This document shows positions 1-64,000 of a stretch of DNA of 64,000 bases, piece after piece (position 1 is the stretch's first letter; each line of letters opens with the position of its first letter). The stretch is from Tubulanus polymorphus (Eukaryota; Animalia; Nemertea). Below the pieces are notes generated by a model, which did no database searches, was not told the origin of the DNA, and saw only the letters and a list, made by a program, of their open reading frames with translations. The position numbers and the translations under genes are program-made. Location: the NCBI RefSeq assembly GCF_964204645.1, contig NC_134030.1, positions 12,793,947 through 12,857,946 on the forward strand, given 5' to 3'.

Positions 1-3
1 CAA

Positions 4-3000
4 ATGAGACATAAAATGGCGGACGTGTTAGAACGTATTAGATTACTATCACTAAATTGCAACGGCTTAGTTTACTCGAATGCTCGAATTTTTGGCATTT
101 TTGAAAGACTTAAAAACTATGATATCATTTTACTTCAAGAAACTCACATATCGAATGACTATGAAGTACAAAAAATATTTAAGCCCTTGAGGAAAGATTT
201 TGAAATTATATCTAATATTATAAACGAAATAAAATGTGGGGTAACCATTGGTATTCGAAAATCTTTAGACTATACAATTTTAAATAAGACTGTAGATAGA
301 CAAGGGAGATTGATATCCTTGAAAATATCCCTATTCAGCCAAATTTACAATATCGTTAACATATATGCCCCAAATAAGGAACGTGATAGGAAAATCTTCA
401 TAAGCTATATCAGTAATTATCTTAATATAAACCCTAATGAGCATACAATAATAGCCGGAGACTTTAATTGTATAGAAAGTCCCATAGATCGTGATTCAAC
501 ATCCGTCAAATCATCAATACGTAGTGGTTCAGAACAATTAGCTAATTTATGTCAACAAAACAGATTAACAGACGCTTACAGACTTAAAAACCCAGACACA
601 CCAGCTTTCTCTCGAGTAGCAAAACGCAATAACAACGTCATTAAAACAAGAATAGATCGATTCTATGTATCAGACACTTTACAGCCAGACATAGAACAGG
701 TGAAACATATCAACTCTATTCATTCCGATCACAAGATAGTCGAATTGACAATTAACACTTCTCAAGTCAAACGTGGCAAGGGATACTGGCATCTCAACAA
801 AGAACTACTTAAAAACCCTAATTACATCACTATGATAACAGAATTTTGGAATCAATGGCAAAATCACAAACAGTTTTATGAATCGATTATTGAATGGTGG
901 GAAGAGGGCAAAATTCAAATAAAACAAAGATCTATAAAATTTGCATTAGAACTCCGCAGAATTAAAAACAATCTTAAGAAATCATTAGAATCTGAATTAT
1001 TCATTCTCGAAAAACTTTCTGATTTAGGAGTAAACACTAACCAAAATCAAATTGAATATCTTACCAAGCGTATTCGTGACTTCGACATTGAAAAAGCAAA
1101 AAGTGCAATGATAAGATCTAAAATTGAGTGGAGAGAATTTCGGGAGAAAACAAGTACCTTCTTCGCAAATTATGAAAAACAACGCGCTAAAAAGAATCAC
1201 ATCAGGACTCTCAAAAATAATCTGGGTGAAATTAAAACTGGTCAAAAAGACATTGAAAAAATTCAAATAAAATTTTATAAAGACTTATATAGAAAAGAAG
1301 AAACGGATTTAGGAACCCAAAATCTATTCCTGAGTAATCTACCTAAAATTTCTAATCAAAAGAAACTCTAGCATGACTCCGTAATAGATATCGATGAATT
1401 AACAAATTCAGTCAAATCTTTCCAAAATAATAAATCCCCTGGTATAGACGGACTACCTATTGAATTTTATAGAATATTTTGGCATACTCTCCAAAATGAC
1501 TTTCTACAATTAGTACATGCGTGTATACAAGAAAATAGACTTTCTAAATCAATGCAAACTGGTATTATTTCATTAATTCATAAGAAAAATGACAAAACAG
1601 ACTTGAAAAATTGGAGACCAATCTCATTACTATGTACAGATTACAAAATATTCACAAAAGTTCTCGCTAACAGATTAATTAACTGTCTAACAGACATAAT
1701 ACACCCAGACCAGACATGTAGCGTAAAGGGACGTCGAATTCAAGACAATGGTCATATCATAAGAGACTTAATTGATTACGTTAATAATGATAATTTAGAA
1801 ACATTTTTAGTGACCATCGATCAAATGAAAGCTTTTGATCGTGTTGACTGGCAATATATGTTTAAAACTTTAGAATCTTTCGGTTTTGGAGGAAATCTAA
1901 TTCGGTACATCAAGACTTGCTATTCAAATCCAAAATCCAGAATTAAAAGTAACGGCTTCTTAACTAAACCCTTCACCTTAGAAAGAGGCGTAAGACAGGG
2001 ATGCCATATGAGCGCAATACTCTACATAATAGCAGCGGAACCATTAGCAATTAAAATACGCGAAAACAACAATATCAAAGGAGTAAAACTACCAGATGAC
2101 ACAGAAATTAAAATCAAACAATTTGCAGATGACACTACATTATGTCTAACCGACTTAGAATCATTGAATCAAGTCCTTACAACCTTAACTCTGTTTGAAA
2201 GAGCATCAGGTGCAAAAATTAATAAAGATAAAACTGAGTGTATGTGGATAGGATCTTGGAAAGCTAGAAACGATGAACCTTTAGACTTAAATTGGAAGAA
2301 ATCAATGAAAATTTATGGAATTCATTTCGGCAATGAAAATACTGATGATTTAAACTGGAATCCGAAAATAAATAAAATTCAAAATATCATAAATCTTTGG
2401 CGCCAAACTAAATGATCTTTACATGGCAAAAAGGTTGTCATAAACTCTTTTATACTACCTATATTATGGTACACTTCCGAGATTTTTCCAATTCCAGATA
2501 AATATATCAAAATCTTTGAACCAAAAATCATCAATTTCCTATGGGATAATGGAAAACGCCTTGTCAGTAAAGACATAATACATAAAAAGATCGAACACGG
2601 AGGTCTCGACTTACAAAACATTAAATACAGACAACAAACACAGGCAACTAATTCTGTCTGACCAAAATTTAGATCCCGATGAATTACCAAAAATCTATGT
2701 ACAATTTGGTAATATAGTGTGTACTATAGGAAAACTTTTATCATCTCAAATTTATCGAATTCTATTATTAAAAAATCTCCATCAAATCACACCGATAGGG
2801 CAAACCAAAATTACTGAAATGTTAAATGCTGATCTGAACTGGCCGGAAATTTGGAATGAAGTTTATAATAAACATATTGATAGACGATTTAGTGATATTC
2901 ATTGGAAATTACTGCATAACACTCTGGCAACAGCTTCAAAACTAGTACTTTGGAAAATAAAAACTGATCCAAATTGTAAAATTTGTGGACGCGCGGCAAC

Positions 3001-3817
3001 GAATGACCATGTAGTATTCTCATGCACAGAAGCACAGCAATTATATTCATCTATACAACCAATCATTCAACGCATACTAGACACACCAATAAATATCACT
3101 CAAGACATCGTCTACACAGGAATTACTAAAACAATAGAAAGAGATTTCTTCAAACGCACACTCGCGAAATACCTTTTGTTTCTCGCACAATCCATTTTAC
3201 GGAAGCCCCTAGCCTAGGTGACATACGAGAAAGTTTTTTCACAATTTCGACTTATTAAGTCGAATTTCGACATAATAAGTCGAATTTCGACATAATAAGT
3301 CGAATTTCGTGTTAATTAAGTCGAATTTTGACTTAATAAGTCGAAATTCGACATAACAAGTCGAATTTCGAGTTAATTAAGTCGAATTTCGAGTTTTATT
3401 TTCATGTCGATTTTCGACTTATTAAGTCGAAATTCGACTTAATTAACACGAAATTCGACTTATTATGTCGAAATTCGACTTATTAAGTCGAAATTCGACT
3501 TCTTAAGTCGAAATTCGACTTATTATGTCGAAATTCGACTTAATAAGTCGAAATTATAAAACAAATTATCTCATATGTCACCTAGGGGCTTCCGTACCAT
3601 TTTGTACAAAAATCACTACAATTTAGAACAAGGCTCTGGCCGCATGAACACAATAATTTATTTCAAAAACTCGCTAATAGATCGCCTAAACCAAGAAATC
3701 ATGCTTCAACAAAACCTTCATATTTGGACTCTTAACAATGTACTTATACACCTGGATGCAAACGGACTGAACGTAGTAAACAGAATCACAATCGACACCA
3801 TTAGCGTAGTCTATTAA
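4..3817 (+). pseudogene. Tx1/L1-clade non-LTR retrotransposon ORF2 (APE endonuclease, reverse transcriptase, C-terminal zf-RVT), disrupted
   Basis: APE motifs: SLNCNGL, LLQETH, NIYAPN, AGDFN, RIDRF, SDH. RT motifs: KSPGIDGLPIEFY (read through the TAG at 1369-1371), WRPISLLCTDYK, DQMKAFDRV, GVRQGC, FADD. C-terminal CKICG..NDHVVFSC. In-frame stops at 1369 and 2413, a frameshift or deletion near 2650-2717, and a MITE insertion at 3198-3596. Confidence 0.93.
3198..3596. mobile_element. Non-autonomous TIR element (IS3EU-like MITE)
   Basis: Termini TACGGAAGCCCCTAG...CTAGGGGCTTCCGTA with a perfect 6-bp TSD CCATTT (3192-3197 and 3597-3602). Removing it restores the LINE reading frame (..AQSILYKNHY..). 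The interior is ~20-bp AAGTCGAA(T/A)TTCGAC repeats. TAY..RTA termini with a 6-bp TSD match IS3EU. Confidence 0.8.
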
Positions 3818-14428: not shown

Positions 14429-16300
14429 AGCCCGAAGACCTTTTTAGTCTGCTATTGTGCCCTATATACCACTTTGACAACATTTTAATTGATTCTGGTT
14501 ATTAAAACTACGTCAACGAACTTAGTAATGTGAATGGTATACGGATCACATGTCGGACACGGAATGTGGAAGGTTTTTTGAACGTTGAAAATTTGAAATG
14601 GGCAAGTTCACCTATAAGGGGGTTCCTCCAAACCCATGTACAGGCCTAAGTCTGCAGATTTAAACACGGGTCCACCGACTATCAGTCAGTGAAGAAACAT
14701 GACTTTAGACAAAAAGACAAAGGAATTAGTGCAAGCTGCTTACGCTGTATAATTAAAGGTTTTCTAGAGATCGAGCAAATTATTCAAACCCTACCGCCTC
14801 AACTGCGTCATTTCGCTTATGATTTAGAAACTATTGCTGGCCAGGCCCGGGCCGTGCTTGGTCTATATAACATAGTGATAATGATTTGGGGTTTTCAGCA
14901 ACAAAAATGTCCATACATTGACAAAATCAAATAGTATTATATATAAGTATTATATGAGGCCTGCCTACCTATTAGTTATAAGGCCTATTATCCACTCAAA
15001 TATCTTAGAATTCCACCCTTCCTCAACTATTGAATCCCATCTTTTCCTAATCATAGAGTCTCATTCCTTCTTCATGACATTTTCAAGCCAACTCTGACAA
15101 TTATTGAAGCTGTTGCAATTTCTTCATCAAAAATTGATCAGTCAAGCTACAACTATGAAATATTTCATTGACACAAGTTTTGGTGATAATGAAGTGTCTA
15201 TTATTCGAAAGACAATCATTTTCACTGAACAGCATATATCCTGACAAAAATCATTCAAGACACTCCAACGTTAGAATCATTAATGTCATGCCCTAGAAGT
15301 AAAGAAAATTCAAGAAATTGCCTCAAAAATGAGCTTTCATTCGACAAATTTGGTGAAAGGGTTCAAAAGATATGGGAAAAAAAGAATTTTTTCAAATAAA
15401 CGCATATAATGTATGGTTTCCATGGTGACAACGTTTAGTTATAATTTACTCGTGAACGAATATGGAATGATTTTAAAATTATAAAGAAAAAAGATTAGAT
15501 ATGGTTTTAGATAAACACATCCTCAATTAATCCATTGGTTACGTCAAGAATGTGGACAAATTACCCGATATTTCTGCAATTGCAACAATGGTTACCATTG
15601 TTGCAATTCAATTGTTAGCAAGACGTAGTAATAAGCGGTCCAATACATGGCCGAAGACTTTAGGCAAGTTTGAGAACATTTGGAATGTCACGAAAGACCC
15701 AACGCCCAAAATACCGGTACCTGACGGATGAAGAACGCAGATTTGAATTGCTGTTACCATAGAAACCAATAAATAGTTAATCCCGATATTGACCAAGTAC
15801 ATACGAGTTATAAGTAAGTTTAAAGAAATATCAAAATAATCAACAAAAAACATTAACAACATCACTATTTGAGCTAATAACCTTTAAAATGAATATTTCA
15901 TATGAAATTGCTATTTTCAAGTGAATATTACACGATTGTTGCTGCTGTAACTAGGTAACAAATGAATGTATGCATAAAATTAACGTTGCGCTATATGCGC
16001 TGCAATCCCCCAACTCAGAAAAGGTTTAGATTGTAAAATTACTCCAAACCTAAGATGAGATATTCGAATTATTTAGCAAAAGTAGTTTAAAGTGTATTTC
16101 CTTGACGAATGAAAATGAAGATGTTTTAATTTCAAAATGTCTGACTTTAACGCCCCCTGTAGGCCAAAAAACGAAAAAATTGTAAAAGGCATCCACCACA
16201 CATGAGAGCCCACATACTCTGCTATCAAATGAGCTCTGATGCCAAGCTGTAACAAAAAATTCTGTGATTGTCGAATTTTCCATGATTGGCTGGCTGACTA

Positions 16301-19030
16301 GGTGTTGAGTTTTTAACTCCCAGGAGGTATTTATAAAATTTGAGAGGGATTCTCTCTAGTTTTCTTTGTTCTTTGAAACCCCATATTTGGCAGCCATAAG
16401 TTAAGACAGGTACCACGAGGCTGTCAAAAAATTTAATGGCTAGCCTGGGTGTGACTTTTGGATACTGCAGAAGGTATTTTCTGAAATTATAGTATGCTGA
16501 TACTCCCCGAGACGCCAGACTGTTGATAGTTACATTATGTTTTCCATTGAAATTGAAATCCATACCTAAGTATGTAAAACAGTTTACACTTTCTATTACT
16601 TGTCCATCAATCTTCCAAACAAAGTTTCTTACATTGACAGCTTTTCTAAAGACGACAATTTTCGTTTTTTCATAATTAATTCCGATATGCATTACATGAC
16701 AGTAATTAGAAATATTATCAAGGGCACATTGAAGTCCTTCTGGCGTCTCGGCGAGTATAACCGTATCATCAGCATATAAAAATAATAAGAGTTTGAATGT
16801 ACCTAAGTCGATTCCATCATAATCATTGCTTTTAACATGTTCTTCCATGTCATTGATAAAAAGATTAAAAAGAAGAGGAGATAAACACTCTCCCTGTCTT
16901 ACTCCAATGTTACATACAAAGTACTCAGTGAAATTGTTATACTGCTTTACACACGATTTCGTTGTTCTATACATAGAATGTATTATTCTAAGGATTTTAC
17001 CGGATAGCCCGTTACTTTGGAGTTGGTTCATCAGAATTGACCGATCAACTAAGTCAAAAGCTTTAGAAAAATCTATGAAAGCAGCATAGACTTGGTTACC
17101 CTTACTAATAAAATGATTTATAACTGAATTTAGGACAAACATTTGGTCTATGGTGCTGTATGATGGTCTAAAACCTGCTTGTGATTCTGAGAGAACTGAG
17201 AAAGCCTCACACCAGGAAGTTAATCTTGTATTTAGTATGGTTGAGAACAACTTTCCAAAAACAGACAGTATAGTAATACCTCTAAAGTTATTCGCATTAG
17301 AAGTGGGCCCCTTCTTATGGACTGGTACTATATATCCCATACTCCAACTTTCAGGGTATATGCCACTCTCAAAAATTAAATTAAATAGAATAGTTAATTG
17401 ACTTAAAATCGATTCACCTGCTACAATAAATAGTTCCCCTTTCAATCCATCAATCCCAGATGACTTATTTCTTTTTAATTTCTTAATTGCACGTTGAACT
17501 TCCTCAGCACTAATTGGGCCATCCAATATATGGGCAGTCTGATCGATATTGGCATCATGTTCAACTGGGTTGTCTGCAGAGGAGAGGTTTTTGAAAGGAT
17601 TAAATAAACTGTTTAAATCAGGTAGTTTACATTCAGGTGTAGAACCTTTAAATTTTGTCCACAGATCTCTATGATTATTGTTGTCTAATGAATCTAACAA
17701 ATCTTGTAAATTATTGTTATCAAAATTTTCTTTCGCTTTACTTATAGATGTCTTATAGTTTATTCGAGCTTCTCTTAAAAGGATACGATTTACATTTGAT
17801 GCATGCAGACGAAAGCGGCGGGATGCCCGACTAAATTGGTTTCTGGCTCTTTTACATGAGTCGTCATACCAGGATGACTTATTTTTTCTGTTGACCCTAT
17901 ACGAGGTGACAGAGCCATGTACATTATTCACTATTTCTTGTAGGTATTGAGAGAACTTGTCAACTGCCTTATTAATTGACTCATTACTATCAGCATGCAA
18001 GATAGCATCATTTAGTACATCAAATAATCTCTGTTGAGTATCATTAGTCTCGAGCTGTTCAACAACTACGCCTTCTCGTTGTTTACGCCACCGAAATTTC
18101 AGACATGTTGTTTGGTTTGGGCTATTATTTTGTCCGGCTGCCTCATTGGTTACTGTGTTATCATACTGTGATAACAAATTGATAGATACATGTAGCATGG
18201 CGTGATCAGAAAAAGGGAGTTCCTCCGATATATGGAAATCACATAGTTGTGAAAGTATATCATAATCACATAGTATGTAGTCAACCACACTTTTACCTAG
18301 AGGGTGATGACACGTAAATTTACCAAGGGTTTTATCACCAAATGCTCTACCATTGAGAATTAACAGACTACATCCAGCACAAAGCTCAATCAAATTTTGA
18401 CCTCTTACATCCAGTCTAACTACATTATCTTGTGACACTCGTTCTACATTATAATAAGTACTATATTCAAGTAAGTTGTATACATCAAGATCGATATTGA
18501 GGTCAGGGATGTTCCCATTTTGAGGAGGGGTCAAACCAGGATGAGCATTTGTTCTTCCATTGAGGTCACCAATAATCATGACGTGACTATCTAATTGATG
18601 TGTAAGTATATTACAAGTAAGATCGTTAAAGAAATCCACTGTATTATGGTTATCACATGAGATATATATTAAACAGATTATCATATCTTTTTCAAGAGAG
18701 AAATAATTTTTACACAATTTGATCCACATGATATCAGGATGATTACTAGGGAGGGATGCTATTCCATCAGTGAATTCGCTTTTAAAGAAAAATAAAAGTC
18801 CGCCAGAATTTCGCCGTGCACGCGGACTCTTTTTCCTAACCCTTTGCAAATATGAAAAACCGTGGGGCACTGGAAAAATATTATCAGATGAATTCCAGGT
18901 CTCAGCTAACAGGATAAAATCTGATTTATTAAAGACCTGTTTCATTTCAGGTGTATCAAGTTTACATACTCTAATGCTCCTATTTCTACTAAATAAACCT
19001 TTGATATTTAAGAAACATAAGTTAAGTGAA
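16301..19030 (-). pseudogene. RTEX-like ORF2 N-terminal ~900 aa (APE endonuclease and RT), interrupted by an insertion
   Basis: LLAETW, SGGL, IGDLNGR, SVVDY, SDH; KSSGIDG, FRGITILS, QAGFR, FIDFSKAFD, GVRQGECLSPLLFNLFIND, LYADD, YLG. Confidence 0.9.
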
Positions 19031-19115
19031 TTGTATTTGCTATCGCTACGTAAATCTACAGAATTATTTACATTACTACATTACTTGGTCGCCTCATTTA
19101 TTCCGCTGTCCGTAT

Positions 19116-19889
19116 CTAATGTAACCCGCGCATTACGCAGTTTCGAATTTCCAATGGGAAGTCTTCAATAATACGGTAACGTTTGTTTATGTCGTTGAAA
19201 CGTGCGCGATGTACCATTTCTCGATCTTTGTAGTCTCGAAACGCTACAGTTATTGTTCGCTGATAATTACGATTTCCGTTCGGGTTTCTATGCGCCCGTT
19301 GAAACACCATTCTATCGACGTGTTCGCTATTAATATGTAGTGTATGCTTGAGTATATTTTTGATAACCAATTCACAGTCCTCGTTTTGTTCTTCAGGAAC
19401 CCTTAGGAACACTAGATTATTTCTCCGTGACCTTGCTTCCAGTTCGATCGCTCGTTCCTCTAATTGATTAAACTGACAGTTCTCCTTAATTTGCTGAGGG
19501 ATTGATGACCTTACGCTGTCTATTTCGGACATTAATTTCTTTTCGGCGTTTTCGATTTCCCTGTTAAAATCGGCACGTAATTCGCCCTTGAGTGCAGTAA
19601 TCTGATGTTCCATAAATACTTGCAACTCGTTTTTCAATGAGTCTATTTTGGAGTCAATTTTGTATTCTAGCGAGGTTTTTAGGCCTCTGAATTCGCAAAG
19701 TAAAGTATTCATGGGTACCTCCGTGCTGTTCTCCGATTCAAAGCTGTTTTCATCCACTTCAGCTGGTGCTGCATCACTCGCTTCAATTGATTTCCTGACC
19801 GGGGTGTTAGTATTGGTGTCTGAGCCACTCGACCGGCCACGTTTACCTTTATTGGAGTTCTTCCCCGGTGGATTATTACCTGCCGGCAT
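19116..19889 (-). CDS. LINE ORF1 (coiled coil plus RRM of L1-ORF1/transposase_22 type), probably frameshifted at the 3' end
   Basis: Coiled coil followed by LEARSRRNNLVFLRVPE, FQRAHR, ITVAFRDYKDRE and IIEDFP; lies directly upstream of ORF2. Confidence 0.8.
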   Translation of the reverse strand: MPAGNNPPGKNSNKGKRGRSSGSDTNTNTPVRKSIEASDAAPAEVDENSFESENSTEVPMNTLLCEFRGLKTSLEYKIDSKIDSLKNELQVFMEHQITALKGELRADFNREIENAEKKLMSEIDSVRSSIPQQIKENCQFNQLEERAIELEARSRRNNLVFLRVPEEQNEDCELVIKNILKHTLHINSEHVDRMVFQRAHRNPNGNRNYQRTITVAFRDYKDREMVHRARFNDINKRYRIIEDFPLEIRNCVMRGLH

Positions 19890-20403
19890 GTTGTATTCGA
19901 CTCTTAAAAATCAATATGGCCGCCACTACGAGATGCTAACTGCTTCGAAATTATCGAAATTATCCTGTTATGTCCTAGTACAGACTGCCTGTTATCTCCA
20001 ATGTTATCAGCGACATGACAGAGATGCTATTACATAAGTTAGTGTTAATACCTTCACTCGTGGGTTGAAGAATGCTGTTCCTAGTTGAATATAAACGGAG
20101 CGCTAACTCGCACGTCCTACATGGTCGCCGCCATTTTGTATTATATATATATTTCCTGTAAACAAACTTCAATATCTCTTAAACTAAAAGAGATAGACTA
20201 GAAATTTAAAGAGCAATACACTCATAGCACTTTCAGGTGACAGTTGAAAGACCCAAAATTTTTATCTGATCCCAAATGCCTACGGTTTCCATGGAAACCA
20301 GCCGAAAAATGGTAAAATAATGAAAATATCAATGTTTTATCAAAAGTTATCATGTATAAAGGGGATAGAATAACTAGTTATCAATAGTTTATGTTTGCCC
20401 TAA

Positions 20404-45477: not shown

Positions 45478-48400
45478 GGATGAGATTGAATTTGGGTCAG
45501 TTGGCACAACGAACCCTGAACTGTGCGCGCCGCCGTGGTAAACAATAAGGGCAAGCTCTCATTCTAAATCTTTAGAATATGGAGTAGGTCTAAGGCCAAA
45601 AAAAAAGATGCCTTGTTTCTCATCACACTTTTGTTTTTTACCATGACGAGGGCGGGCGGTTTTTATTTTTATGTACTTTTAAAAAAAAAAAAGTAGAAAT
45701 AAAAAGAACTGTTTGAATTTTTTTTGGGGATGCGGGAGGTGTCTTTTTATTTTTATTATATCAATAAAAATATCCCTCTGACATATTTTCTTCAGATGCG
45801 GGAGGTAGTTTTTTATTTTTATTTAACTGGAAAATCACTGCTTAATCCTGAAAATGATTGGTGAATCCTGAAAATCCATTGCAACACCTCAAATAAAAAA
45901 AAGAGTAAACTTCAAAATTAAACAATAAAAACATTATATTAACCATAAAATGTTACAAAACTTAATTGAATGATTAACAAACTTGATTTATAAAATGAAA
46001 TTACAAACTTAATAAAAATGAATTACAGTTTTAACATAATAATATAGATACGATTTGAGACCATCGAGAAGCAACGCCCAATATTGATGGAAAACATACA
46101 ATTTGGCCTAACACTAAAGGGACATTGTCGGAATTTATGCTAGACATTGGCTTGGTTTATAAAATGAAATTACAAACTTGATAAAAATGAATTACAGAAT
46201 TTTAACATAATAATGTACATATGATTTGAGACCATCTAGAGCCAAAGCCCAATATGGATGGAAAACACACATATTGGCCTAACACCTAACCCTTGTCGAA
46301 ATTTATACTGGACATTGGCTCTAAATAGCTGTATATCCAGTATAAACTTTTCAACCAACAAAAATGTATAAAAATATAATATGTAAAAATGCAAATTTAC
46401 TTGAAGCCCAATGTTCTACAGGCTGCAAATTAGAATCTAATTCAAGGCAATGCGTACATATAGTGTGCCAAAATTTACTTGTCAAATACTTTCCTTTTAC
46501 GCTTGAGAACACGACCTAATTTTGTGTCAAAGCAGGGTTCACAGATGGGGTACAAGTCAACCGAACCAGCTGCAGTGGTGAAATCCTCCTGACCCCCACA
46601 ATTGGTGCAGATATTGACAAACTGTTGACTGGAGTAATACGGGACTTCAATAGGCGATAAGCAGTTTAGATTTTTGCGTATGTATACCTTATCGCCTAAC
46701 AACTTCTCATCTTCATTTTCAGATTCAAACACTATTTCTTTTATAGTGGTACCACATACATAGAGCACAGACTCCATCAACACCATAAGATTTTCCCGTT
46801 CTTTAGGCGATAGCTTTTTAGCCGAATATAAAACACGGGATTTGTCACACTCGCTACAAATAGCAATTTCACCAACATTTTTAGCAGTTTGTGCTGTAGG
46901 ATTGAAGGGAATTTCATGCCCACCAGTTTTCTGGGTGCTAGATGGGGGCTTGTCGGTGGTTTTTGTACCATAAACCTCAGTAAATGGTTTGTAATGTTCC
47001 CCAGAATCATCTACCACAGGGAATGGGAGGAAATGTATTTCCTTGAAGTCGTCTGCCGGTATAGTTGAAAGGGAGCAGAGCTGGCAATCGAATGCACCAC
47101 ATTTTTTAAGGCAGAAACTGTATTGACCAGTCTGCCCACAGTGTTTAAGGAGATTCTTAATGACCTGGCTTTTATGTACATCCCGAGATTTAGAGTAAGG
47201 GTCTAGTTGTTCATCTAAGTCATTTACAGTTTCGAAAAATTCTCTGATTTCTTCTTCCGTAGCTGATTCCATGCATGTGAAACTCTCACCTTTAAGTTCT
47301 AATTTTTCAATGAGGGAATTCAGTAACTGCTTTGCAGGGCGGGTTGAATCTAAGAGAGCAGGGCCCATCCCATCATTTTTCTCAACAGCAGCTCTTATCT
47401 CTTTCATATTACTACACCCAGAGAGAATGTTTTCGAAACTGTCAGTAGACTCCTGCCGCATAAGACCAACACATTGTAGGGCAATATTGATAATTGACAT
47501 TATGCGCTCAACTGGGTTTAACCAGCTATTATATGGTGGTGTTCTTACAGCAACCAAGAGATCAAGCTGAAATCTCAAGAAAATACACAGATACGACAAC
47601 TGTACAGTTATAAAATTAAGCCTGTGGTCAGGGCCACCATCCGAATAAATAAACAGAATTGGCTTTCTAACCTGAGTATCCAATATCTTGATAATTTCAG
47701 TGGCATGTCGAATTGGGCTAGACGGTTCTAATATACTATCTTTGAGATTCACAAAGACTTGCCCAGAATAGAAACTCCCAGTGATTGAGTCTGGCACATC
47801 AATCAGCAATGTCACACTTGGAGTCAACCCAAACTTTGTGAAATCATGATCACCAACTGAAAATAGCTTATCCTTGTCTACAATTACCTGCTTACCACGA
47901 TCACACGCTGCCACAGGATATCCCGGTTCACCTAATTTGATTTTATGTTTATCATCTATTGAAATAAAGACACATTTATCTCTAAACCTAATGGCCATCT
48001 CACGTTCGTATTTGTACAATGCTGATGCATAGTGAGAATCAATGTGTGAGTGCCTCACCTGCCTTTTCTGCACCATATACTTCAATTTTAACCTACCCGT
48101 GTATTGGTAGGCAGATTTTGAATATGGGTCCTTCGGCCAAAATTGAAGTCTAAGCCATTGTTCAGAAGGTATAGGTGTACCTTCTGGACAATGGCTGGAG
48201 ACTTCTTTGTGTAGGTGGTGGATGGACATTGCTGTGGCAATATGGCACACAGCATCATGGCGACGATCATCTGTAACCTCGCCACAAATTTCATTTATAT
48301 ACTTCTCCACCTCAACCCAAAACGGCTAAAACTTGGCTTCCCGGCCTTGATTTAAGGTTCTCATATCTGCCACCAGATCTACATCCCCAGATTCCATAAT

Positions 48401-49807
48401 AAGCCTGACACGTGAATCAATTATGGCCTGCTCTGCAGTTTCTCCAACAGACATATCACCCGAAATAAGTTTATAGATATTTCTGAATACCAGAGGTTTT
48501 AATTTTACTACAGACCCGACCATTTTTTCAACAACTTTGCGCATTTCACGTGTATGGAATTTTGGCATGTCGGCCGACAGTTTAAGGATAATATGGCTAT
48601 TTGAATCTATTGTATCTTCATTTTCTGAGCATTTCCATACAAAATGCAAGGAACCAAGATTGTTTCCAGTACTGTAAGTGTACAAGACAGACCTAAATCC
48701 AACACCATACATTTTTATGCTTTTTATAACTTTGTACCTTTCTTGAGGATTTTCAGGTAGGTATTGGTTCAGAAATAGAGGTTCATTGTCACCCAATACA
48801 GTTAAAGCTTCATAAATGTCTGTCATATATTCAGCATGAATTTTGGGAAATGGCATACCATATGGCAAGTCTATAGTACTATAAGCGTCATCAACACTCC
48901 GTACTGGTTCCTGTAAACTGTGTATCCGATTCATTTCTGCTGTTCTCTTATTCAGATAATCGATATACTTGTCTAATGCCATAGCTAGGTTCTCTACCAT
49001 CTCCTTCATGTGCTTCCATTGGTCATCTGTAGAAATCCATTTCTAGAATACAAAAATATTTGAATTTTGATAATCCCTTGTCAAAATTTTGTTTGTGGAA
49101 TACATGACTTGCCCACAGATTTTTACATTTAATACCATGGCCCTAAAAACAGAGCAGTTTGAAATGCAATGACATAAGCCTGAAGCATCACTGAGCAAGC
49201 TGAAATAAAGGCTTGTATGTAATAAACAGGAAGTGGATAAGTCCGTCAAAGTAATACATAGAAATATAAAGTCTGCTGTCCACCATTGAATTTTAACTAT
49301 TGATATAGTTCATAGTCAGTTAAAGAAAATAAAAATGCAATACAGACATCCTTGAAATAATGCCCATGACGTGTTCTTGTGTAGGAAATATTTTACATTT
49401 ACAATCTTGTTTGTGAATATATTCGCTAAAGTATAATTAATTTTCTCTAACTCGGTTTTCAAATATAATTTTAAAGTATGAAAATTCAAGGGGGTTTACC
49501 TGTTGTAAAACAGTAAATAACATATCTCTAAATGATGACATCTCCGTTTCAGATAGTTGCGTACGTTTATGTTTGTGGAGCTCCGGGCGATTATACCCAT
49601 TTAGTGGCTTGAGTGCTGTTGGGATTTCGCAGCTCCGAGAAGCTAATTTATCCTGAAAATAGATATAAAACATTTTAAACGTGCATATAGCTTCCATTCA
49701 AAGTCTTGTGCGAAAAGTTAGTGGACATTTTATGCTTTCCGGAAAAAACGCATTAAAACATTTTCCGCAAATTGATCACAATGAATTTTAATGTCCGAAG
49801 AGAAACA

Positions 49808-54090: not shown

Positions 54091-55826
54091 TTAATCTGGA
54101 AGCGCACTTAATCTGGAAGCGCGAGGTGTGCACATTCATTACAATTTGCGTAGGGTTAATCATTCAGAAAAATAGAATTCATATTCAGCATGAATGAAAA
54201 TCGCGCCGGTACGTTAAAACAAATTGACCTAAAGTCTATGGCTCTACCAACTACTGTTTGCGCATTTACCACTAACTACCCTACCACGGTGTAATCTACC
54301 TATGCATCAAGGCCAATGGGTCTTTTGTTCATATAACCTATTTTATTTTTTAGGTGGACCTGTGGAAAGATAAATCGAATTGCGGCATCATTGTCAGTTT
54401 ATCGAACCCATGTGCAATTCCATTCAAGTAGGGAACTAGCTTTTGTAAGCTTTAAAGCGTCTTCACATTTGAATAAAGAAAATAATTATTTGGTGCATTT
54501 GTCTCAGATTTTATGCTGTTCGTATTGGACATATCTGAGATTAAGGTGGACCCAACTCAGCTATAAAGATACTGATTATTTTGTAAGATATCTTGTGTTG
54601 TCAGGCAACTGACATTTGATCTGTGTCAAGACATAATGGTAATGTAGATGCATAGCAGATTCTTGACACCATTGACTGTTCATATATCCCATGACAATGT
54701 TAACAAAACTTTATTGCATAGAGGTACTGGAATTGACAATCGCAAGGAGTTGGACGTCGAGTGCCGGAGGGGTGGGGCACAGACAGTAGAATAATTGCTG
54801 CATTGATATTCAGTTCAGAGAATATAACCTGGATGCCACCAGGGGCCATGGACAGAATGAATGAATGAATGAATGAATGAAAACTGCATACCGGTATATA
54901 CTGAAAAGGGGAAGTTTAGTAATGCAGGTGTCAATGAATGACCTGTCTGACCAGTAAGCCCTGTGAATCCGTCGCGAGGATACGTGAATCCTTCTTGTAT
55001 GCCTGTCATATTGAAAATAGAAATAATCGAATGCCTCACCCAGGGTCATTCAGTGACACCTGCAGGAGTCTGACAATAATATCATTGTATCCTTGTTACC
55101 AAAGTGTGATGTACAATTCAAAGCAAATAAATTCTGAAGAAATGTGTTTGTTTTATTTTTATCTATCCATATGCCACCAGGGGCTGTGAATAACATGGTT
55201 ATATACATATGCTTCATAATGATAGAGAGTTTCAAGGTCAATGGTTCTGTATATGTTCACCAGGGGGTGTTGAATATTGTATTTGCAGGCAGTCGCCAAG
55301 TGAGCATTGTACAATACTCCTGACAGTTTGCCATGGATTACTATCTTTGCAAAAACCTGAATTTATATGTTTTTAGCTCTCAAGCAGTGAGAGAGCTATT
55401 ACAAGCTTGTCGGCATTGTGTCGTGTGTGTTTACCGCAAAGCAAAGCGCACGAATTTTACTGTAATTGAATTAACGAAAGATCCGGGGGTTAAATACGCT
55501 GCAAAAATTGATCCGGCAATTTTGTATTCGAGATTATTTCACATTATATTGAGTTGATAGTGATAGAAGTTGATCACAATAATATTAAAAAGATTTTTGA
55601 ATAATGTTTTATTAATAAGTCGTACGGATAAATTTATTTTCCAAGGTGAATTGATATGCGGATGACTACATCAGTTGGTGTGAACGGGCACCTTTCACCC
55701 AAGGTAGTACCTTAGCGGTCTTAAATTCCTTGTTTTGTGCTAGGAAAGTCAGTGGAAGTCTTTAAATTTGAAAGGTATGCAGACAATGTCCTTGGGAGCC
55801 TTTAATTTTTCAGAGCCAACTGAAGG

Positions 55827-57244
55827 CAGGGTCTGAAACACGACCCCGGCCGCGGCCGCGGCCACACGTCTGAAACACGGTCCCGGCCGCGGCCGCACAC
55901 GTCTTAAACACGGCCGCGGCCGCTCTTTTTTTCGTTTAAATGGTCAAATGAAAGAAAAAAGAGATTTTCTACTATCTATCTCTCTCTATATAGACTATTT
56001 CACTTTTGAACGGTTAAGCTTCAATCGACTCAACCAAACCAGATGCCTATCTATCTACCCTTTTGCTTTGCGAGGAGCTATAATCAAATTTTGATAAAAT
56101 AATACATTTAGTTAGTATGAGTTTTTTTTATGTAGTGGCTATAAAATCAGTGGGAAGGCAGGAATCTGGGCCCCAGGACCACCCCCTAAATCTGCCACTG
56201 GAAAAAAGGCTTCATGGAGAATCAGATGACACTATAGACAAGAGGCTATATATTGACATAACATGCTAAACCTAAGATCCATAAACTTGAGATCCCCAAA
56301 TAGGGCCTATAGTTATTTTATCATACTTGAATGAATCCTTAATATTACGTTTGCCAGACTGGCGGAGATGTTTTACAGTCTTTTGGGTTTGTTTGCGTGA
56401 AAGTAAGATTTAAGCAAAATCACCCTAAAAGGTTTGAATGCGTTTCTATGAAATGTTTCATAGTTTACAAATTAGCAAGTCGCCTTAAAATCAAGATTGT
56501 CGATTTTCTCTAAAGTTAGTTTTATCTATCTCCAGGTGACCACTCTTGATTCGCCAAGACAACAGTCTCTTTTAATCGATTTTATTCAACTAAGAAACCC
56601 CTGAGATAACGCTCCGCGTTATAGCATTACAAGTTCCACACGTAATTTACAGGCTCCTTTCATTAATTTTTCAAATTTTTTATGCATACATGCAGTATTT
56701 ATGTTAATCTGACCATGGTAGTTGACAGACCGCACGAAGAAGCGGCTCAATATTTCAGGGGCCTTAGGCTTTTTTTTTGGTTCTCAGGTTAAGTAAAGAC
56801 CTGCATTGAGAGTGCATTACTTTGTGCCAACAAATCAACTTTTCTACCTTAAATGTATCACCCACACAATACCCGAAAAGCTCGTATGGATAATTTACTT
56901 TGGGGAAACTGAGTTATTTACCTCCTTCGACTGGTGATTCTAATTTGGGTGAGAGTATGTTGTTGAATATTATGTATTGATCACTAGTTGATCATTGTGG
57001 GATAAAATGAACACTATTGTTTGTTTGTCCATTTTCTTAAAATCATAGCAGATAGGCATCTGGTTTGGGGCAAAATGACAGAGTCGATTGAAGCTTAAAC
57101 CGTTCAAAGTCTATATTTGGACTTTTGATAGATAGTAGAAAATCTCTTTTTTCTTTCATTTGACCATTTAAATGAAAACAAAGAGCGGCCGCGGCCGTGT
57201 TTAAGACGTGTGCGGCCGCGGCCGGGACCGTGTTTCAGACCCTA
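55827..57244. mobile_element. hAT-like non-autonomous element with ~200-bp imperfect TIRs and GGCCGC subterminal repeats
   Basis: CAGGGTCTGAAACACG...CGTGTTTCAGACCCTA with inverted arms; no TSD seen. Confidence 0.65.
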
Positions 57245-58795
57245 CCATCGGAAGGAATTTTTCAGTGGCTAGGCTTACGTCTTAAGGGTGGTCTGGGGCC
57301 CTCCCTTAGAAAAATTTTGAAAATTCAATCACCGGAGATGCGTTTTGGGACCATTTCACGGTCTCATTCACAGAAGCACGAGAAGTCGTGAGCCAACCAC
57401 CTAGTACAGAGAACGACGAGCTGCTACGCGGTACAGCGTGCTTTAAAAAAAATTTTTGTTAAGCAAAAAAGTGGCCAAGGCCGCCCCTGCCGCCCCTGTT
57501 CCGACGGCCCTGTTTTTACAGTTAGACCAAAATAATTGCCAAGTTGTATGGCAGTGTGGTGTGCGTTTATTCATTTACTGCAGACGTATTGCGTGGCAAC
57601 AGTCGGCGTCTTAGCCATACTATGCGAAGCACGCAAGCGTTGTCAGAACTCAGTCAGTGTCTCACACTGCACACACTACAGTAACAGCATAGGCTCGTAT
57701 TGCCGTGAATACGCTTGTTTTTCATACAGTGAAATAGGTTTTTTTTGAATGAAATAAACTTTATCATAGATTTTCATCTAAGTTATTATCAGTCCAATTG
57801 CTTTTAAAAAGTCCTTGAAAGTTATATACATTGGTCTGTCCATCTTTTTGTAATATAACAGGCCATAACAAATTGATCTGACGTATTCGCCTGTTGTGAT
57901 ATTTTTGCTATTTTATACGATTCGGGACAAAACATTTGGTAGTAGCCCAATTTGATCTTGTCTAGCTGTTTGCCTGTGTATATAGTTTGCACTGCGATAC
58001 GTGAATGGCTACTACCTTGTAAAATGAGAGCATCAATGGGCTAGGAAGGCCTCAGTTCTCTGGCTTGAATTCACGCCCAGCACGACTGTAGAATTGATGT
58101 ATCTTGTGTGTACCTGTAACTCTGCCACTCATAAAGGATCGAAAAATTAATTGTTGAATTCTATAAAAAGTGTTATGGTCGATAAACCAAATTAAATCAA
58201 ATGCTTTTTTTTCCGTGCCTGGATTACTCGGCAGATGCCTATCCCCATTCCAAGTGCCCCCATCCGCCATAGCTGTCCCCCATCATATCAAGAGCCTATT
58301 GCGACTCGTGCCAGATCTGTCATACTAGTCATACACGAGTGTCGTCAGTAACAAAGGTCAATAGGGGCGATCCTCGCATTTAGTTAAATGGGTTTGATAC
58401 AGCAGAAAAACTTGAGAAGAGTGTTCGGGCACCAATGACCCGAGCCAGATCATCTTTTTGTCGACCGAATATTGCGGTGGCCTGGTAAACTCCGACGTCT
58501 AATCTTTAATAAAGTGGACATAAAGTGAAGAGCGTTGACAATAACAACACAAGAGCTAGGAAGAGTGAGTGATATAGAAGTCTGAGACATAGTGTCAAAT
58601 GATACACGATGAATGATGTCGTTTATTTACGACAGCGCGCCAAATTGAAAATGTTGGTGTTTTCAGATACGAGATTGGTGATGTTGCGCAGGAGTGGCAA
58701 CAACTACTTGTTGGGCTTTGAAATCTTTGCCGCTTCACAACAATTTGGCGCGGGATGGTCTCAGCTTGAATGGCGAGCCATCATATTCCATGGTT

Positions 58796-59411: not shown

Positions 59412-59496
59412 AGTAATAGGGAATATGTTGTTTCAGGCCAAAGGTCGAAAGGTCGACCTTCAACCTTTAACCTGAAACAACATATTCCCTATTACT
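59412..59496. repeat. 85-bp near-perfect palindrome (hairpin/cruciform)
   Basis: Perfect 26-bp arms at 59412-59437 and 59471-59496, an imperfect inner stem, and centre GGTCGACC. Confidence 0.95.
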
Positions 59497-59798
59497 CTTA
59501 AAATACTCATCTAATAACTTCTAAAATCAATTTTGATAGAAAATATGTTATTAAAATGGAGAGTAAACAAATACACACTGAATTCTTAGATAGAATTAAA
59601 GATAATACATATGTAAAATCTGTAGATTATAAATTTAAGAAGTTAGCAGAATTAACAATTCATAAGAAATATCTAATTACAAATATTGATACAGTTACTA
59701 ACCAATAAGGCTAAAAAAATATTTTGAAGCATAAGGTTTCCGCGAACTCTAACTCTTTTTCAAATTTAAATTTATTTTAATAAAAATTTAATATATAA

Positions 59799-62098
59799 AT
59801 GTGCTCAAGATTAATTAAAGTTACCGCGAAAGACATGAGTAATAAATATATAAATTCAATATTATATTATTTAACTGCTAATAATAATTTAGCTGATATT
59901 TCAGGGGTAAACATAAATATTATACATAAGTATTATAAATCGGATAATAATGAATTAATTGAAATGTCAGATATATTTTGCGATAATACATGTATAATGC
60001 TATATAAAATCATGTTAGAAAAGGAAATTATTAAAGGAAATAGGACAACTTTTCTTAACGTTAATCAGAGAAAGATAACACATTATGAAATTAAGGAATG
60101 TTTTAATCAAGGAAATATCATATTGGATAACTTAGCTTTAAAAATTACACGTGTTTTAACAATTCATGATGATAATTCAAAGTCATATATCTTAAGTAGA
60201 ATTAATCAAGAATTAAAATTAACAGATTATATAGCAGTATTTAAAATTTCATTATGCAATCAAAATTTAAATGAATTAATTCAGAAAATGGATACTATTG
60301 AAAAATTATTGAATGGAAAAATTACAATATATTAGATGTAGATGTTACACAAGATTTTAAAGGATCCTTTAATTCAGATGAAATAAAATCAATGTTCGAA
60401 AATAGAAAATATAAAGTTCTAAAAGAATTCTCCAATAGTTGTGTTTCAGCATTACATAAGGATGATAAAATAAAGATTTATAATAAAACAGCATGTCAAT
60501 TCAAATCTCCTGGTGTAAATATAAATTTCGGTTCAAATTTAATGAGTTACATAAATTGCTATCAAGAAAGGTAGAAAGAATCATTTGAAAAATCAATTGA
60601 AACAGGATTAATTAGAATTGAAATAAGAAGTATTTCATTTGAAAAAGGATTAAAAATGATGGAGAAAAATTAAACAATACTTAAAAAAAGAAAATATTTA
60701 CTATTCACCTGCATATTTACAACTTAAATGATTATTTGATGAGGTTCAACAGACTGTATGCATTTATGATTTGACTGAAAAATGCTTTTATTTCTGTTAT
60801 TACGGCGATTTATTAGCAAGAAAATTTATAGGATATAAATCTAGGATTAGTAAAAATATTGAAGAGTCCTCCTTTTTACTCATTTTATCAATGTTTACAA
60901 TCAAGAATATCCCATGTTTATACCTCACAATTAATCAAAATGATGATAAATCAGAATTCATTATTGAAGCAAAAAAATATATTAAAACTGAAGGAGCCTG
61001 TTATATCTTCAACTAATTCAATGTTTACAGTATTAAATAAATTAATATTTAGATTTAAATTACATGAAACAGGAATTAGATTTACAACTTTAAAAAAGAG
61101 GTACAATATCAAATCTAAACAATATCTAAATCCTTTTTATAAATTAGATGCACTTGATATTGAAGAAGATTTTGATATAAAATTATTATCTAAAAGTGAA
61201 TTTAAAAGATTAGAAGAAATGAAAGAAATTAAACAATTTCAAGAAGATATCGATGAAAATAGAAATAAAATTTGTTATGAATTCAAGCAACAATTAGGTC
61301 TCGATAATGAATTATTTGAGACAGAATTTAAAAAACTTGAAATAATTCCTGAAGTAAAATTAAATGATAATTCTCCTAAAATATCTGGAATTGAAAATAA
61401 TACAATTTTCGAAATTAGAGGCTTTTCAACTTAATGTAAATGTTTAACAGATCTTTATTTCAATTATATTTTAACAGATCAAGGCTTATTTGAAACTACT
61501 ACTGATTTAAGAATTACTGATTAAAACATTACAATTAGATGTATTAAATGGTATTTATTTTGAATTGTCTTCGATAGAAAACACAATAAGAAAGTTACAA
61601 ATAGGTGTTCATAGCCCTGATAAACACTTTATTTTATCAAAATTAGAAAAAACTATTTTCCAAGTTAAGAAAATAACACACAATCATTTTGAAATAATTG
61701 ATAAAATGGATTTTGAATTGATGAAAAAGTATACTGAATATTTAAAGATTAATTCAAATGATTTCATTAATGTATGTGATATACGTAAAGAATCTGATTA
61801 TTCAAGAAAAATGAAACTTAACAATATGAAAATTAAGCAATGCGAATGCTTAGAACTGTTGAAAGATAATTCTGAATATAATATTGATTTCATTAATCCT
61901 AGATATTTTAGAAATAAATTACACCATCTAATTTTAATTCATAATGATGAAAATATTTACATATCAAATGAATTTTTCGATAAAGAAATGATAAAGAATA
62001 ATACTACAGAATATCAGGTGATAAAATTGATAACACACAAGCAAAAATATAATTCTCGGCGGCATAGAGAATTAGTAGTGAGTTTAATTGTTATTTGA
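59799..62098 (+). pseudogene. Decayed intronless AT-rich gene with a Rep_trans-like rolling-circle initiator core (candidate endogenous viral or plasmid-like element)
   Basis: Joining frames across a 2-nt slip at ~60330 and a TAG at 60572 gives KITILDVDVTQDFKGSF...KIKIYNK...GLIRIEIR; further co-oriented ORF fragments run to 62098. Confidence 0.55.
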
Positions 62099-62231
62099 TT
62101 TGAAACATATAAAAGTTTAATATTTTAAAAATGATTATAAAATATTAAATATTTATCAATTTTTTAGTTTTTTTCTTAAATTATAAATGGATGGTTTTAT
62201 TTTCAACTGGGAAAAGTGATTTGAAACATTA

Positions 62232-64000
62232 TTGGTACACGAATTTGGTACATTTAGTCTTCCGACATTAAGTCTTTGTACATTTAGTTTCCATCCAATT
62301 AGTCTTCTGACAATTAGTCTTCCAAATTGGGACATTTAGTCTTCCTTCGTAGGTACGGTAGGTACAGTAGGGAGGTACAGTTAGTGGAAGCCTGAAACCT
62401 GGGGTTTATTATCTTAAAATACTGATAATATGGCTGAATTCTCTTCACATTTTCTTGTTACCAAAAATATATCTGAGGACAACAATAGATTAGTTGCTCT
62501 TTAGGAACTGCATAATTTGATAAGCTAGCGGGAACAAATGATTTCAGTTCACAATCATGTAGGGTTATTGTTAAATGATGCTAGATTAAAGGGAACTGTT
62601 TAATCAATTGATTAGTTATTCTTTAATCTAAGGAAACAATACATATAGCCTAAACAGGCCAATGAGTACTAATGATTTCAGTTCACATGTAGGGTTATTG
62701 TTAAAAGAGGCTAGATTAAAGGGAACTAATTAATTAGTTATTCTTTAATCTAATGAAACAATACATATAGCCTAAGCAGGCTAATGAGTACCAATGATTT
62801 CAGTTCACGTGTAGGGTTATTGTTAAAAGAGGCTAGATTAAAGGGAACTAATTAATTAATTAATTATTAAGAAGATTTTAATTCTGGAACCCCAAAAAAT
62901 AAACTTAGGAAAACTCAATTTCATTTCTTACTTTTTCCCTTTTGCTCTTTAAAAATTTACTTTACATGTTATTGCTTCGCGGATGATAGCACAATATGCA
63001 AGCGCAAAGACTGTTCATGCATTATAATCAATTGATCGACTAATTAACTATTGGATAGGCTTAAATCAATAATTGTGATAAGATGTTCACGCAACTAATT
63101 GATAACTAATGAAGTGACGATATAGTCATAACTCAGACAATTTTTTTGCTTTTGATCATCATTCAATCAGTAATTTATCAGCAATTAGGCCCTACTGAAT
63201 CATATATAAGGGGCTATTTTCAAATGTCATTTAGTCCAATATTTAACCCCATGCTTAAAGCACAGCTCTCAGAAGATGGAAATAATTGAAAGTACCCGAG
63301 GTGGCCAGGAGTTGTGTTACAGTGGTTACATGTATACAAAGCAATACACCAAAAAAGAAAGTATTCGCTGGGTGTGTGAAAAAGAAATGATTAATGACGA
63401 GTAAAGAAATCACTGGACCTAGAGAAACCGCAGAACATAGTCATTGTAGAGATATGACTGAAATTGAAGTAACTAAAGCAAGATTTCAAACGAAGAAACG
63501 AGCTGAAAATACGAGAGAAATTCCAATTCAAATACATTCAGAAATAATTTCAAGACTTAACAACCCAGATGTACAAAGCCGATTACCTCACGCTGATACA
63601 TGCAAGAAAGTAATGCAAAGAGTTCGACGCAAGAAATATCAAAAAGATCCTGCAACCCATGATGAGCTGTTCATTACAGATACATGGTCTCTAACCCGAG
63701 AGGATGGAGAAGAGTTCCTGATGTACGATAACGCGAGCACAACATCAAGAATCATGATTTTGGCAACAGACATATGTTTGAAAAAACACTGTGAACCTGA
63801 TACGTGGTTCATGGACGGAAATTTCCAGATGGCACCAACTTTGTTCGAACAGTTGTATGTAATCCATGTCCCTCTGGCTAATTCTGCTATTTCAACCGTT
63901 TATGCATTCCTTCAAAGGAAAACTCAGGAAACTTATGAAGAATTTCTCACCGTATTATGTGAAAAGTGCGATGACAAGGGACTATTTCTCTCGCCGAAAA
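62232..64000 (+). mobile_element. Mutator-like (FLYWCH-MULE) transposon, left part
   Basis: Subterminal (A)TTAGTCTTCC repeats at 62250-62345 and ~130-bp tandem repeats at 62538-62855 upstream of a MULE transposase; left end approximate. Confidence 0.65.
63276..64000 (+). pseudogene. FLYWCH-MULE transposase, 5' part, disrupted, runs off the window
   Basis: MEIIESTRGGQELCYSGYMY..IRWVC (FLYWCH-like), a lesion near 63400, then GEEFLMYDN..RIMILAT..WFMDGNFQMAPTLFEQLYVIH..VYAFLQRKTQETYEEF. Confidence 0.88.

Follow-up and report, generated by a model that had tools for sequence, protein, structure and literature searches.

The Rep_trans initiators (Pfam family PF02486) include RepC and RepD of the pT181-family plasmids, RepSTK1, and the relaxases of ICEBs1 and Tn916. 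Their motifs are named N' and I to IV (PMC5714925). The sections of PMC4797284 that deal with the active site of RepD single out D46; R140, D142, A144, and D146; T176, Y178, and G180; R189, Y191, K193, and E196; and R212 and E214, with the metal ligands D46, D142, and E214 each coming from its own strand. This placement of the Tyr and the metal ligands on separate strands sets Rep_trans apart from the HUH enzymes (PMC4797284, PMC5714925). The origin of the pT181-family plasmids is a hairpin (PMC4797284). Phage_CRI (PF05144), the family of filamentous-phage gene II, has motifs similar to those of Rep_trans (PMC5714925).

Rep_trans enzymes appeared to be restricted to bacteria, and an archaeal sister family has been added (PMC13107129, April 2026). 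Rep-Arvir (DUF7845), found in archaeal viruses and plasmids, is a TBP-fold initiator that is tied to Rep_trans by structure alone. As described in that source, it replicates circles, its Tyr lies in a KHYYM motif and proved essential, and a hairpin downstream of the gene is its cis element (PMC13107129). As far as the relevant parts of PMC5714925 and PMC10288648 go, the rolling-circle transposons described all use HUH enzymes.

Here we describe a locus of the nemertean Tubulanus polymorphus, located in a window of 64,000 nucleotides, i.e., the whole stretch of DNA that was analysed (contig NC_134030.1, positions 12,793,947 to 12,857,946). This locus is a decayed copy of a repeated, multicopy element, which is probably a rolling-circle transposon whose mobility depends on a tyrosine nickase of a Rep_trans-like, TBP-fold, non-HUH type. 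A Rep_trans-like reading had been proposed from the sequence ahead of any search. The features of the element are as follows, with residues numbered as in the family member P0005.

59412-62233, plus strand: complete element, with a sharp left end and an approximate right end (62204-62258)
59412-59496, no strand assigned: terminal hairpin with 38-bp arms, whose first base is also that of the element; the loops differ in length between copies
59497-59733, no strand assigned: left subterminal region, common to very many short relatives; read depth 535-750
59799-62098, plus strand: one broken gene of ~770 codons, delineated by tblastn with the homologues P0002 to P0005
59976-59987, plus strand: FCDN, whose Asp at 59982 is the first predicted metal ligand (family D65, likely RepD D46)
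60341-60355, plus strand: DVTQD (family D191-x-T-x-D195, likely RepD D142-x-A-x-D146)
60473-60487, plus strand: KIYNK, with the predicted catalytic Tyr at 60479 (family K234-x-Y236-x-K238)
60614-60622, plus strand: RIE (family R281-x-E283, likely RepD R212-x-E214)
61380-62098, plus strand: C-terminal part, predicted to form two small β-rich modules after a long helix
62057-62233, no strand assigned: region of the right end, containing a direct repeat of 13 bp (62096 and 62217)

The AT-rich block of about 2.7 kb that was noticed in the original prediction is real. Its GC content is 22.1% over positions 59500-62220, versus 37.2% in the rest of the window; other 2.7-kb windows have a mean of 37.1% (standard deviation, 2.0) and a minimum of 31.5%. 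A value of ~21% is reached at 59501 and held through to 62200. The coordinates proposed for the element, 59799-62098, cover the gene, but the element itself begins upstream, at 59412, with a 38-bp inverted repeat that is an addition to the earlier description. The arms of this repeat are 92% complementary, and as single-stranded DNA the hairpin folds with -33.1 kcal/mol (z, -11.9), a value equalled by none of 200 shuffles. Longer loops are present in some reads. The sole Rfam match of the hairpin is a miRNA precursor, below the gathering score, as for a generic stem.

At the right end, read depth climbs from 12 to 81 across positions 62057-62233, is 97 at 62203, and stands at 40 in the bin 62259-62330. 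A repeat of at least 13 bp, such as the one found here, occurs in 22 of 2000 shuffles; it has a 7-mer in common with the hairpin arms, which by itself is at chance level. There are no terminal inverted repeats, the longest inverted match between the left and right ends being 7 bp, and the search for a target-site duplication gave a match of 3 bp for 2 of the 55 candidate right ends, again at chance level.

The matches of intact relatives in tblastn run from 59814 to 62086 across five frames, with four frame changes (at ~60300-60317, 60665, 61000-61030, and 61510) and three internal stops (at 60572, 60729, and 61432). The two frames recognized previously (59799-~61016 and 61021-62098) thus belong to one gene that tblastn spans as a whole, which rules out a two-ORF reading. 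The 2-nt slip that had been placed at ~60327-60332 moves upstream, to ~60300-60317, because homologues match the second frame already from 60302-60317. The three motifs that had been read from the sequence are indeed present in order in a single frame (from 60302) once the TAG at 60572 is translated as X. Their key residues are encoded at 60341 and 60353 (D), 60479 (Y), 60485 (K), 60614 (R), and 60620 (E), and the spacers are 31 and 34 aa long. A family profile compared with 1524 pieces of the window matches six of them, all parts of the broken gene; Pfam searches match none of seven window pieces to Rep_trans. No second gene, capsid gene, or ATPase gene was seen in the block. The two C-terminal modules (model strands 539-611 and 655-720, of mixed pLDDT) resemble each other weakly (E value, 0.004; probability, 9%) and might be involved in DNA binding. 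They may be OB-fold-like.

With the frame piece from 60302 as a query, four homologues were found (51 to 61% identity). A profile built from these matched 273 clusters (at 50% identity) with E ≤0.001, and 118 with 1e-10. Of the 273 clusters, 150 were listed; 153 proteins were collected, of which the 103 covering more than 75% of the core were aligned; their median length is 764 aa. Among 30 members looked up, 26 are on contigs of 2 to 9 kb and one is without a contig; the other three are from the mealybug Planococcus citri, encoded at two loci (LOC135836840 and LOC135836843) on a chromosome represented by an 84-Mb contig. No Pfam family covers the core of the members (52 plus 4 scanned): Rep_trans or Phage_CRI is found in none of 52 at E ≤0.05 and in none of 4 at E ≤5. 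A Walker A pattern occurs in 2 of the 103 members, and a helicase match in Pfam in none of the 52.

Five protein scans and one DNA scan of viral contigs gave no relative, a weak negative because only exact patterns were used. No relative was found in phage records, and plasmid records gave one chance-level row. Metagenomes yielded nothing in a first scan and three loci (L001 to L003) among 171 candidates in the second. The only relative in prokaryote genomes, one of 66 candidates, is L004 from a Terracidiphilus metagenome-assembled genome (MAG), which is 100% identical over 3575 bp to L003 and is likely a mis-binned contig. L003 itself, 3.6 kb in length, carries a single long ORF, of 1049 aa. 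A hairpin pair of more than 35 bp is absent from L003 and from the partial loci L001 and L002.

Some relatives show features of their own. L003 contains, at 256-3624 (= L004), about a dozen dispersed 20- to 26-bp repeats in both orientations, many within the ORF, and terminates in TTTTGGG repeats resembling those of telomeres. P0046 has ~370 extra residues (360-729) directly after RxE and a weak match to a PHROG partition ATPase (E value, 1.8e-4); scans of 10 and 8 members against PHROGs gave no family common to two members. P0076 carries an N-terminal Rho_N domain (residues 7-44) that scores above the Pfam cut-off. A shorter clade of 505 to 559 aa (P0093, P0094, P0095, P0097, P0122, P0127, P0136, P0142, and P0154) is without most of the C-terminal part.

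The alignment of the 103 members (counts are over aligned rows with a residue) shows D, DxTxD, KxYNK, and RxE to be near-invariant. The acidic pair, the Tyr, and the RxE residues first picked out in the window are thus conserved among homologues. In FCDN, F is found in 82/82 and D65 in 82/83 rows, on model strand 63-73. In the D-x-T-x-D motif (strand 186-197), D191 is conserved in 96/97, T193 in 91/97, and D195 in 97/97 rows. KIYNK, which likely corresponds to R189-x-Y191-x-K193 of RepD, has K234 in 100/103, Y236 in 103/103, and K238 in 103/103 members (strand 231-237), and R281 and E283 are found in 101/103 and 100/103 members, respectively (strand 279-286). The window copy retains all of these residues. 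Thirteen columns are at least 90% identical in the 103 members, and 7 of the 13 match positions conserved in RepD, as given in PMC4797284.

In terms of the Rep_trans motifs, D65, on the first core strand, would correspond by its order to the Asp of motif N'; D191 and D195 likely correspond to the Asp pair of motif I (D142 and D146 of RepD); Y236 and K238 provide the Y-x-K of motif III with its Tyr on a strand; and R281 and E283 form the R-x-E of motif IV. At the position of the motif III Glu (+5), the family has Q (44 members), C (32), or S (20); RepSTK1 carries Gln there (PMC4797284). The Arg of motif I (R140) is absent, position 189 being occupied by D in 63, S in 13, C in 8, and E in 6 of 96 rows, and no conserved columns of the T/S-x-Y/E-x-G type of motif II are seen at 209-232, where the alignment is gappy. 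Judged from the alignment, the family retains N', both Asp residues of motif I, Y-x-K, and R-x-E in the exact local spacing of RepD. A relaxed RepD pattern, whose relaxations were picked after viewing the family, is found in 91/103 members (which are not independent), 13/5150 shuffles, and 5/6 Rep controls; the strict pattern is found in 0/103 members. There is no conserved His pair of the HUH type, the only His columns being 255 (72/103) and 208 (36/100).

Structure prediction is consistent with this assignment. The model of P0005, with a mean pLDDT of 80.8 and values mainly over 90 in the core, places D65, D191/D195, Y236, and R281/E283 on four strands; a model made from the four-sequence alignment was uninformative (pLDDT, 33). 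The predicted active-site residues would be arranged along the sheet of a TBP-like domain (residues 57-310), in agreement with the fold anticipated for a Rep_trans-like enzyme. Specifically, the stretch 58-310 aligns with TBP at a Z of 7.9 (149 of 180 residues; rmsd, 3.9). The comparison tool rates such a score as common, and phosphoglucomutases, which are unrelated, do as well as TBP over 82 residues. Rep_trans itself compares with TBP at a Z of 5.4 (PMC4797284). Foldseek searches of the PDB with the P0005 model gave nothing at E ≤0.001, and RepDE and RepSTK1 were absent from the 50 matches listed, in a comparison that spanned the top 1000 chains. Many of the matches among viral models (rmsd, 10 to 19 Å) are TBP or early transcription factor subunits; the eight at E ≤0.001 include a viral TBP and, as the third-best match, the Inoviridae replication protein G2P (2.1e-4). 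A like mixture of TBP and inovirus matches was obtained for Rep-Arvir (PMC13107129).

Sequence-profile similarity to Rep_trans or Phage_CRI, which had been suggested as a check, was not found. Profile comparison with RepC, M13 gII (L007), and a six-sequence Rep profile gave no signal, the best Rep-control score (17.4) being lower than the best of 60 column shuffles (21.0) for a control profile that is shallow (Neff, 2.6). RepC as a query found no phage record, and a search for Rep_trans controls in 301 genomes of one phylum gave none above the cut-off. In the Atlas, the three best clusters for P0012 residues 30-420 hold Rep_trans/Phage_CRI members (10 to 34%) at scores of 0.82 to 0.83, a lead only, as a third of shuffled proteins attain the same score and family agreement; P0002 residues 60-470 had no usable match. 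PDB sequence matches were coiled-coil and poly-Q artefacts only, with the TBP row reflecting a poly-Q tract, and were set aside.

The family protein is thus predicted to be a Rep_trans-like tyrosine nickase. Residues, strand placement, fold, and Atlas features point the same way, with no single line being decisive. Like the Rep_trans initiators, the family has D, D-x-x-x-D, [R/K]-x-Y-x-K, and R-x-E in the same order and spacing, likewise predicted to lie on separate strands of a TBP-like sheet, with a hairpin close by. In contrast to them, it has no detectable sequence similarity to Rep_trans and is without the motif I Arg and motif II; members are ~760 aa long, with extra middle and C-terminal parts, versus ~300 to 340 aa for the controls (n = 6), and the family element is eukaryotic, chromosomal, and multicopy. 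Since the profile match, the motif I Arg, and motif II are all lacking, we regard the family as a sister of Pfam Rep_trans rather than a member, and with these three tested features missing it is not filed in PF02486. The original prediction of a Rep_trans-type, non-HUH initiator therefore agrees with the residues and the fold but not with the Pfam search or these two motifs. As for Phage_CRI, an Inoviridae G2P model is among the viral fold matches, but M13 gII has no profile match to the family and the element has no virion genes. Rep-Arvir has the TBP fold that is predicted for the family and, likewise, a hairpin, which is located upstream of the gene here; it differs in being archaeal, in its Tyr motif, and in replicating circles (PMC13107129).

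Raw reads from a second sample and study, filed under the same species, extend over all 30 bins. Exactly before position 59412, 555 reads depart from the sequence, and their flanks agree at only 0.36, which identifies 59412 as a true element end. In the gene (23 bins), depth averages 33; the hairpin reaches 993 and the right end 70 to 81, compared with 4.1, 8.5, and 4.1 in the three bins of the broader region that have the lowest coverage. This corresponds to ~4- to 8-fold over the baseline for the gene, ~120- to 240-fold for the hairpin, and ~8- to 20-fold for the right end, ratios that are rough because the baseline bins were chosen as the lowest and held to a stricter likeness cut-off (85, versus 80 for the element). 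The left end is ~30 times deeper than the gene, and most left-end reads diverge at 59456, 59510, 59560, or 59707, indicating that it is common to many short relatives. This large excess of left ends would reflect either short non-autonomous elements or IS91-like one-ended events, moved in trans. An internal skip of 1501 bases is seen in 5 reads and one of 1699 bases in a contig of sample X1; both take out the middle of the gene and retain its start and the right end. No reads join the hairpin to the gene in other copies, so that their adjacency is known from this copy alone, and no right-to-left joints are found among 15 of 20 joints listed. A fixed end and varied flanks in many dispersed copies mark a transposable element, and this is what the left end shows. 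The hundreds of differing left flanks in raw reads identify the block as a host repeat, in keeping with the genuine integration proposed earlier.

Ordinary transposable elements had been reported on both sides of the block, which is borne out in part. At 63210-63999, to the right, a FLYWCH domain (E value, 9e-8) is followed by an ORF with no Pfam match, which presumably resembles a Mutator-type transposase; the 400 bp to the left, which have the lowest read depth, contain six ORF pieces with no Pfam match below an E value of 0.04. Tandem repeats of 15 bp are found at 62231-62356 and of 122 bp at 62524-62866. Elsewhere in the window, positions 55822-57249 hold an element with long, internally repeated terminal inverted repeats and ends at high read depth. 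On the minus strand, two ORFs, 238 and 616 aa long, lie in line at 46475-49042 and probably make up a transposon gene; the 616-aa ORF has only a faint DDE_3 match (E value, 0.04). Also on this strand, 16225-19910 has LINE-type ORFs recognized by inspection. LINE-type ORFs are also found at 1-3217 on the plus strand (RVT_1 at 1372-2412; E value, 1e-37). The LINE reverse transcriptase and the FLYWCH domain suggest a host genome of animal type.

Several other readings have to be weighed against a transposon with its own nickase. The same enzyme could belong to an extrachromosomal rolling-circle replicon, either a circle with no capsid or the Rep gene of an unknown virus, that integrates occasionally and uses the hairpin as its origin, a role that hairpins have in Rep-Arvir (PMC13107129) and the pT181-family plasmids (PMC4797284). 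The gene is intronless and far AT-richer than the host, 26 of 30 members are on contigs of 2 to 9 kb, and the 3.6-kb L003 has one 1049-aa ORF. However, collapsed repeats also yield short contigs; there is no second gene in the block and no second long ORF in L003; viral contigs (in weak scans) and phage records gave no relative, and the plasmid row was at chance level. An exact end at more than 100-fold depth, varied flanks, and deleted forms are the pattern of a transposon, and we consider this reading unlikely. Of the virus, plasmid, and transposon options left open by the original prediction, the reads favor the last, and neither a capsid nor an ATPase gene was seen. The possibility that the TBP-like fold serves another chemistry, in a nuclease, a cut-and-paste enzyme, or a DNA-binding protein derived from a viral TBP or early transcription factor, appears quite improbable. 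It draws on TBPs being the best solved-structure matches, with RepDE and RepSTK1 not among the 50 listed, on the many viral TBP and early transcription factor matches, and on the lack of a sequence signal to Rep_trans. Against it stand the invariant Tyr with Lys at -2 and +2, D-x-x-x-D, and R-x-E at exact RepD spacing. TBP is not known to have a role for such residues. There are also no terminal inverted repeats (longest inverted match, 7 bp), and Rep-Arvir gave the same TBP/inovirus mixture, yet its Tyr is essential (PMC13107129).

We give little credence to the gene being a passenger, amplified by another transposase in or beside a separate, abundant small element formed by the hairpin and the high-copy left region. 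The ~30-fold excess of left ends, the divergence of most reads at 59456, 59510, 59560, and 59707, the hairpin-gene adjacency in this copy only, and the absence of a hairpin pair of more than 35 bp in L001 to L003 would fit such an arrangement. Nevertheless, GC remains at ~21% from 59501 unbroken to 62200, depth is continuous into the gene, deleted forms retain the gene start together with the right end, and the gene's family has a nickase-like active site of its own. An assembly chimera or a microbial contaminant can be given hardly any weight. The left junction is crossed by a single contig, which extends 30 bases into the element, one fewer than the tool requires, and comes from sample X1, possibly the source sample; the right junction is not bridged, and one relative is in a bacterial MAG. 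This MAG contig, however, stands alone, is 3.6 kb long, and has an identical counterpart in a metagenome, and reads of the second sample cover all 30 bins and have hundreds of differing left flanks.

The decayed repeat element, with its nicking-enzyme-like gene, is likely a new kind of rolling-circle transposon, and the element likely spreads in this copy-and-paste manner. By analogy with RepD, the three acidic residues would bind a metal, and the Tyr would nick one strand at or beside the hairpin, which may be the start or stop signal, and stay bound to the 5' end. The strand would then be displaced by a host helicase and polymerase, the family itself being without a helicase. As in RepD and IS91, a second nick-and-join at the other end might release a single-stranded copy, to be inserted at a new site.

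Such a rolling-circle transposon would resemble Replitrons, Helitrons, and IS91 in its single Rep-like transposase, an end hairpin, non-autonomous derivatives, and having no terminal inverted repeats. Replitrons are likewise without a helicase (PMC10288648); the fused helicase of Helitrons is not found in the family. These elements use an HUH enzyme with its Tyr in a helix, whereas here the Tyr is on a strand and there is no His pair. Cut-and-paste transposons differ in carrying terminal inverted repeats at both ends, and, unlike in an endogenous virus, the block has no virion or packaging genes and L003 has one long ORF.

Searches of the open literature, at the level of listings and abstracts, turned up no eukaryotic element that uses an enzyme of this kind; Repbase or Dfam may contain these elements as unclassified entries. 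On balance, the family seems to represent a widespread, undescribed class of eukaryotic transposons with the first non-HUH rolling-circle transposase, a eukaryotic branch of a bacterial and archaeal enzyme superfamily. If so, a second, unrelated nicking fold would likewise have given rise to a transposase and entered eukaryotes; the family, with its 273 or more clusters, is invisible to Pfam. Abundant hairpin-ended repeats that are unclassified would gain an owner, and a compact enzyme for the joining of single strands would become available for study. Even as an extrachromosomal replicon, the element would be a new kind of eukaryotic replicon.
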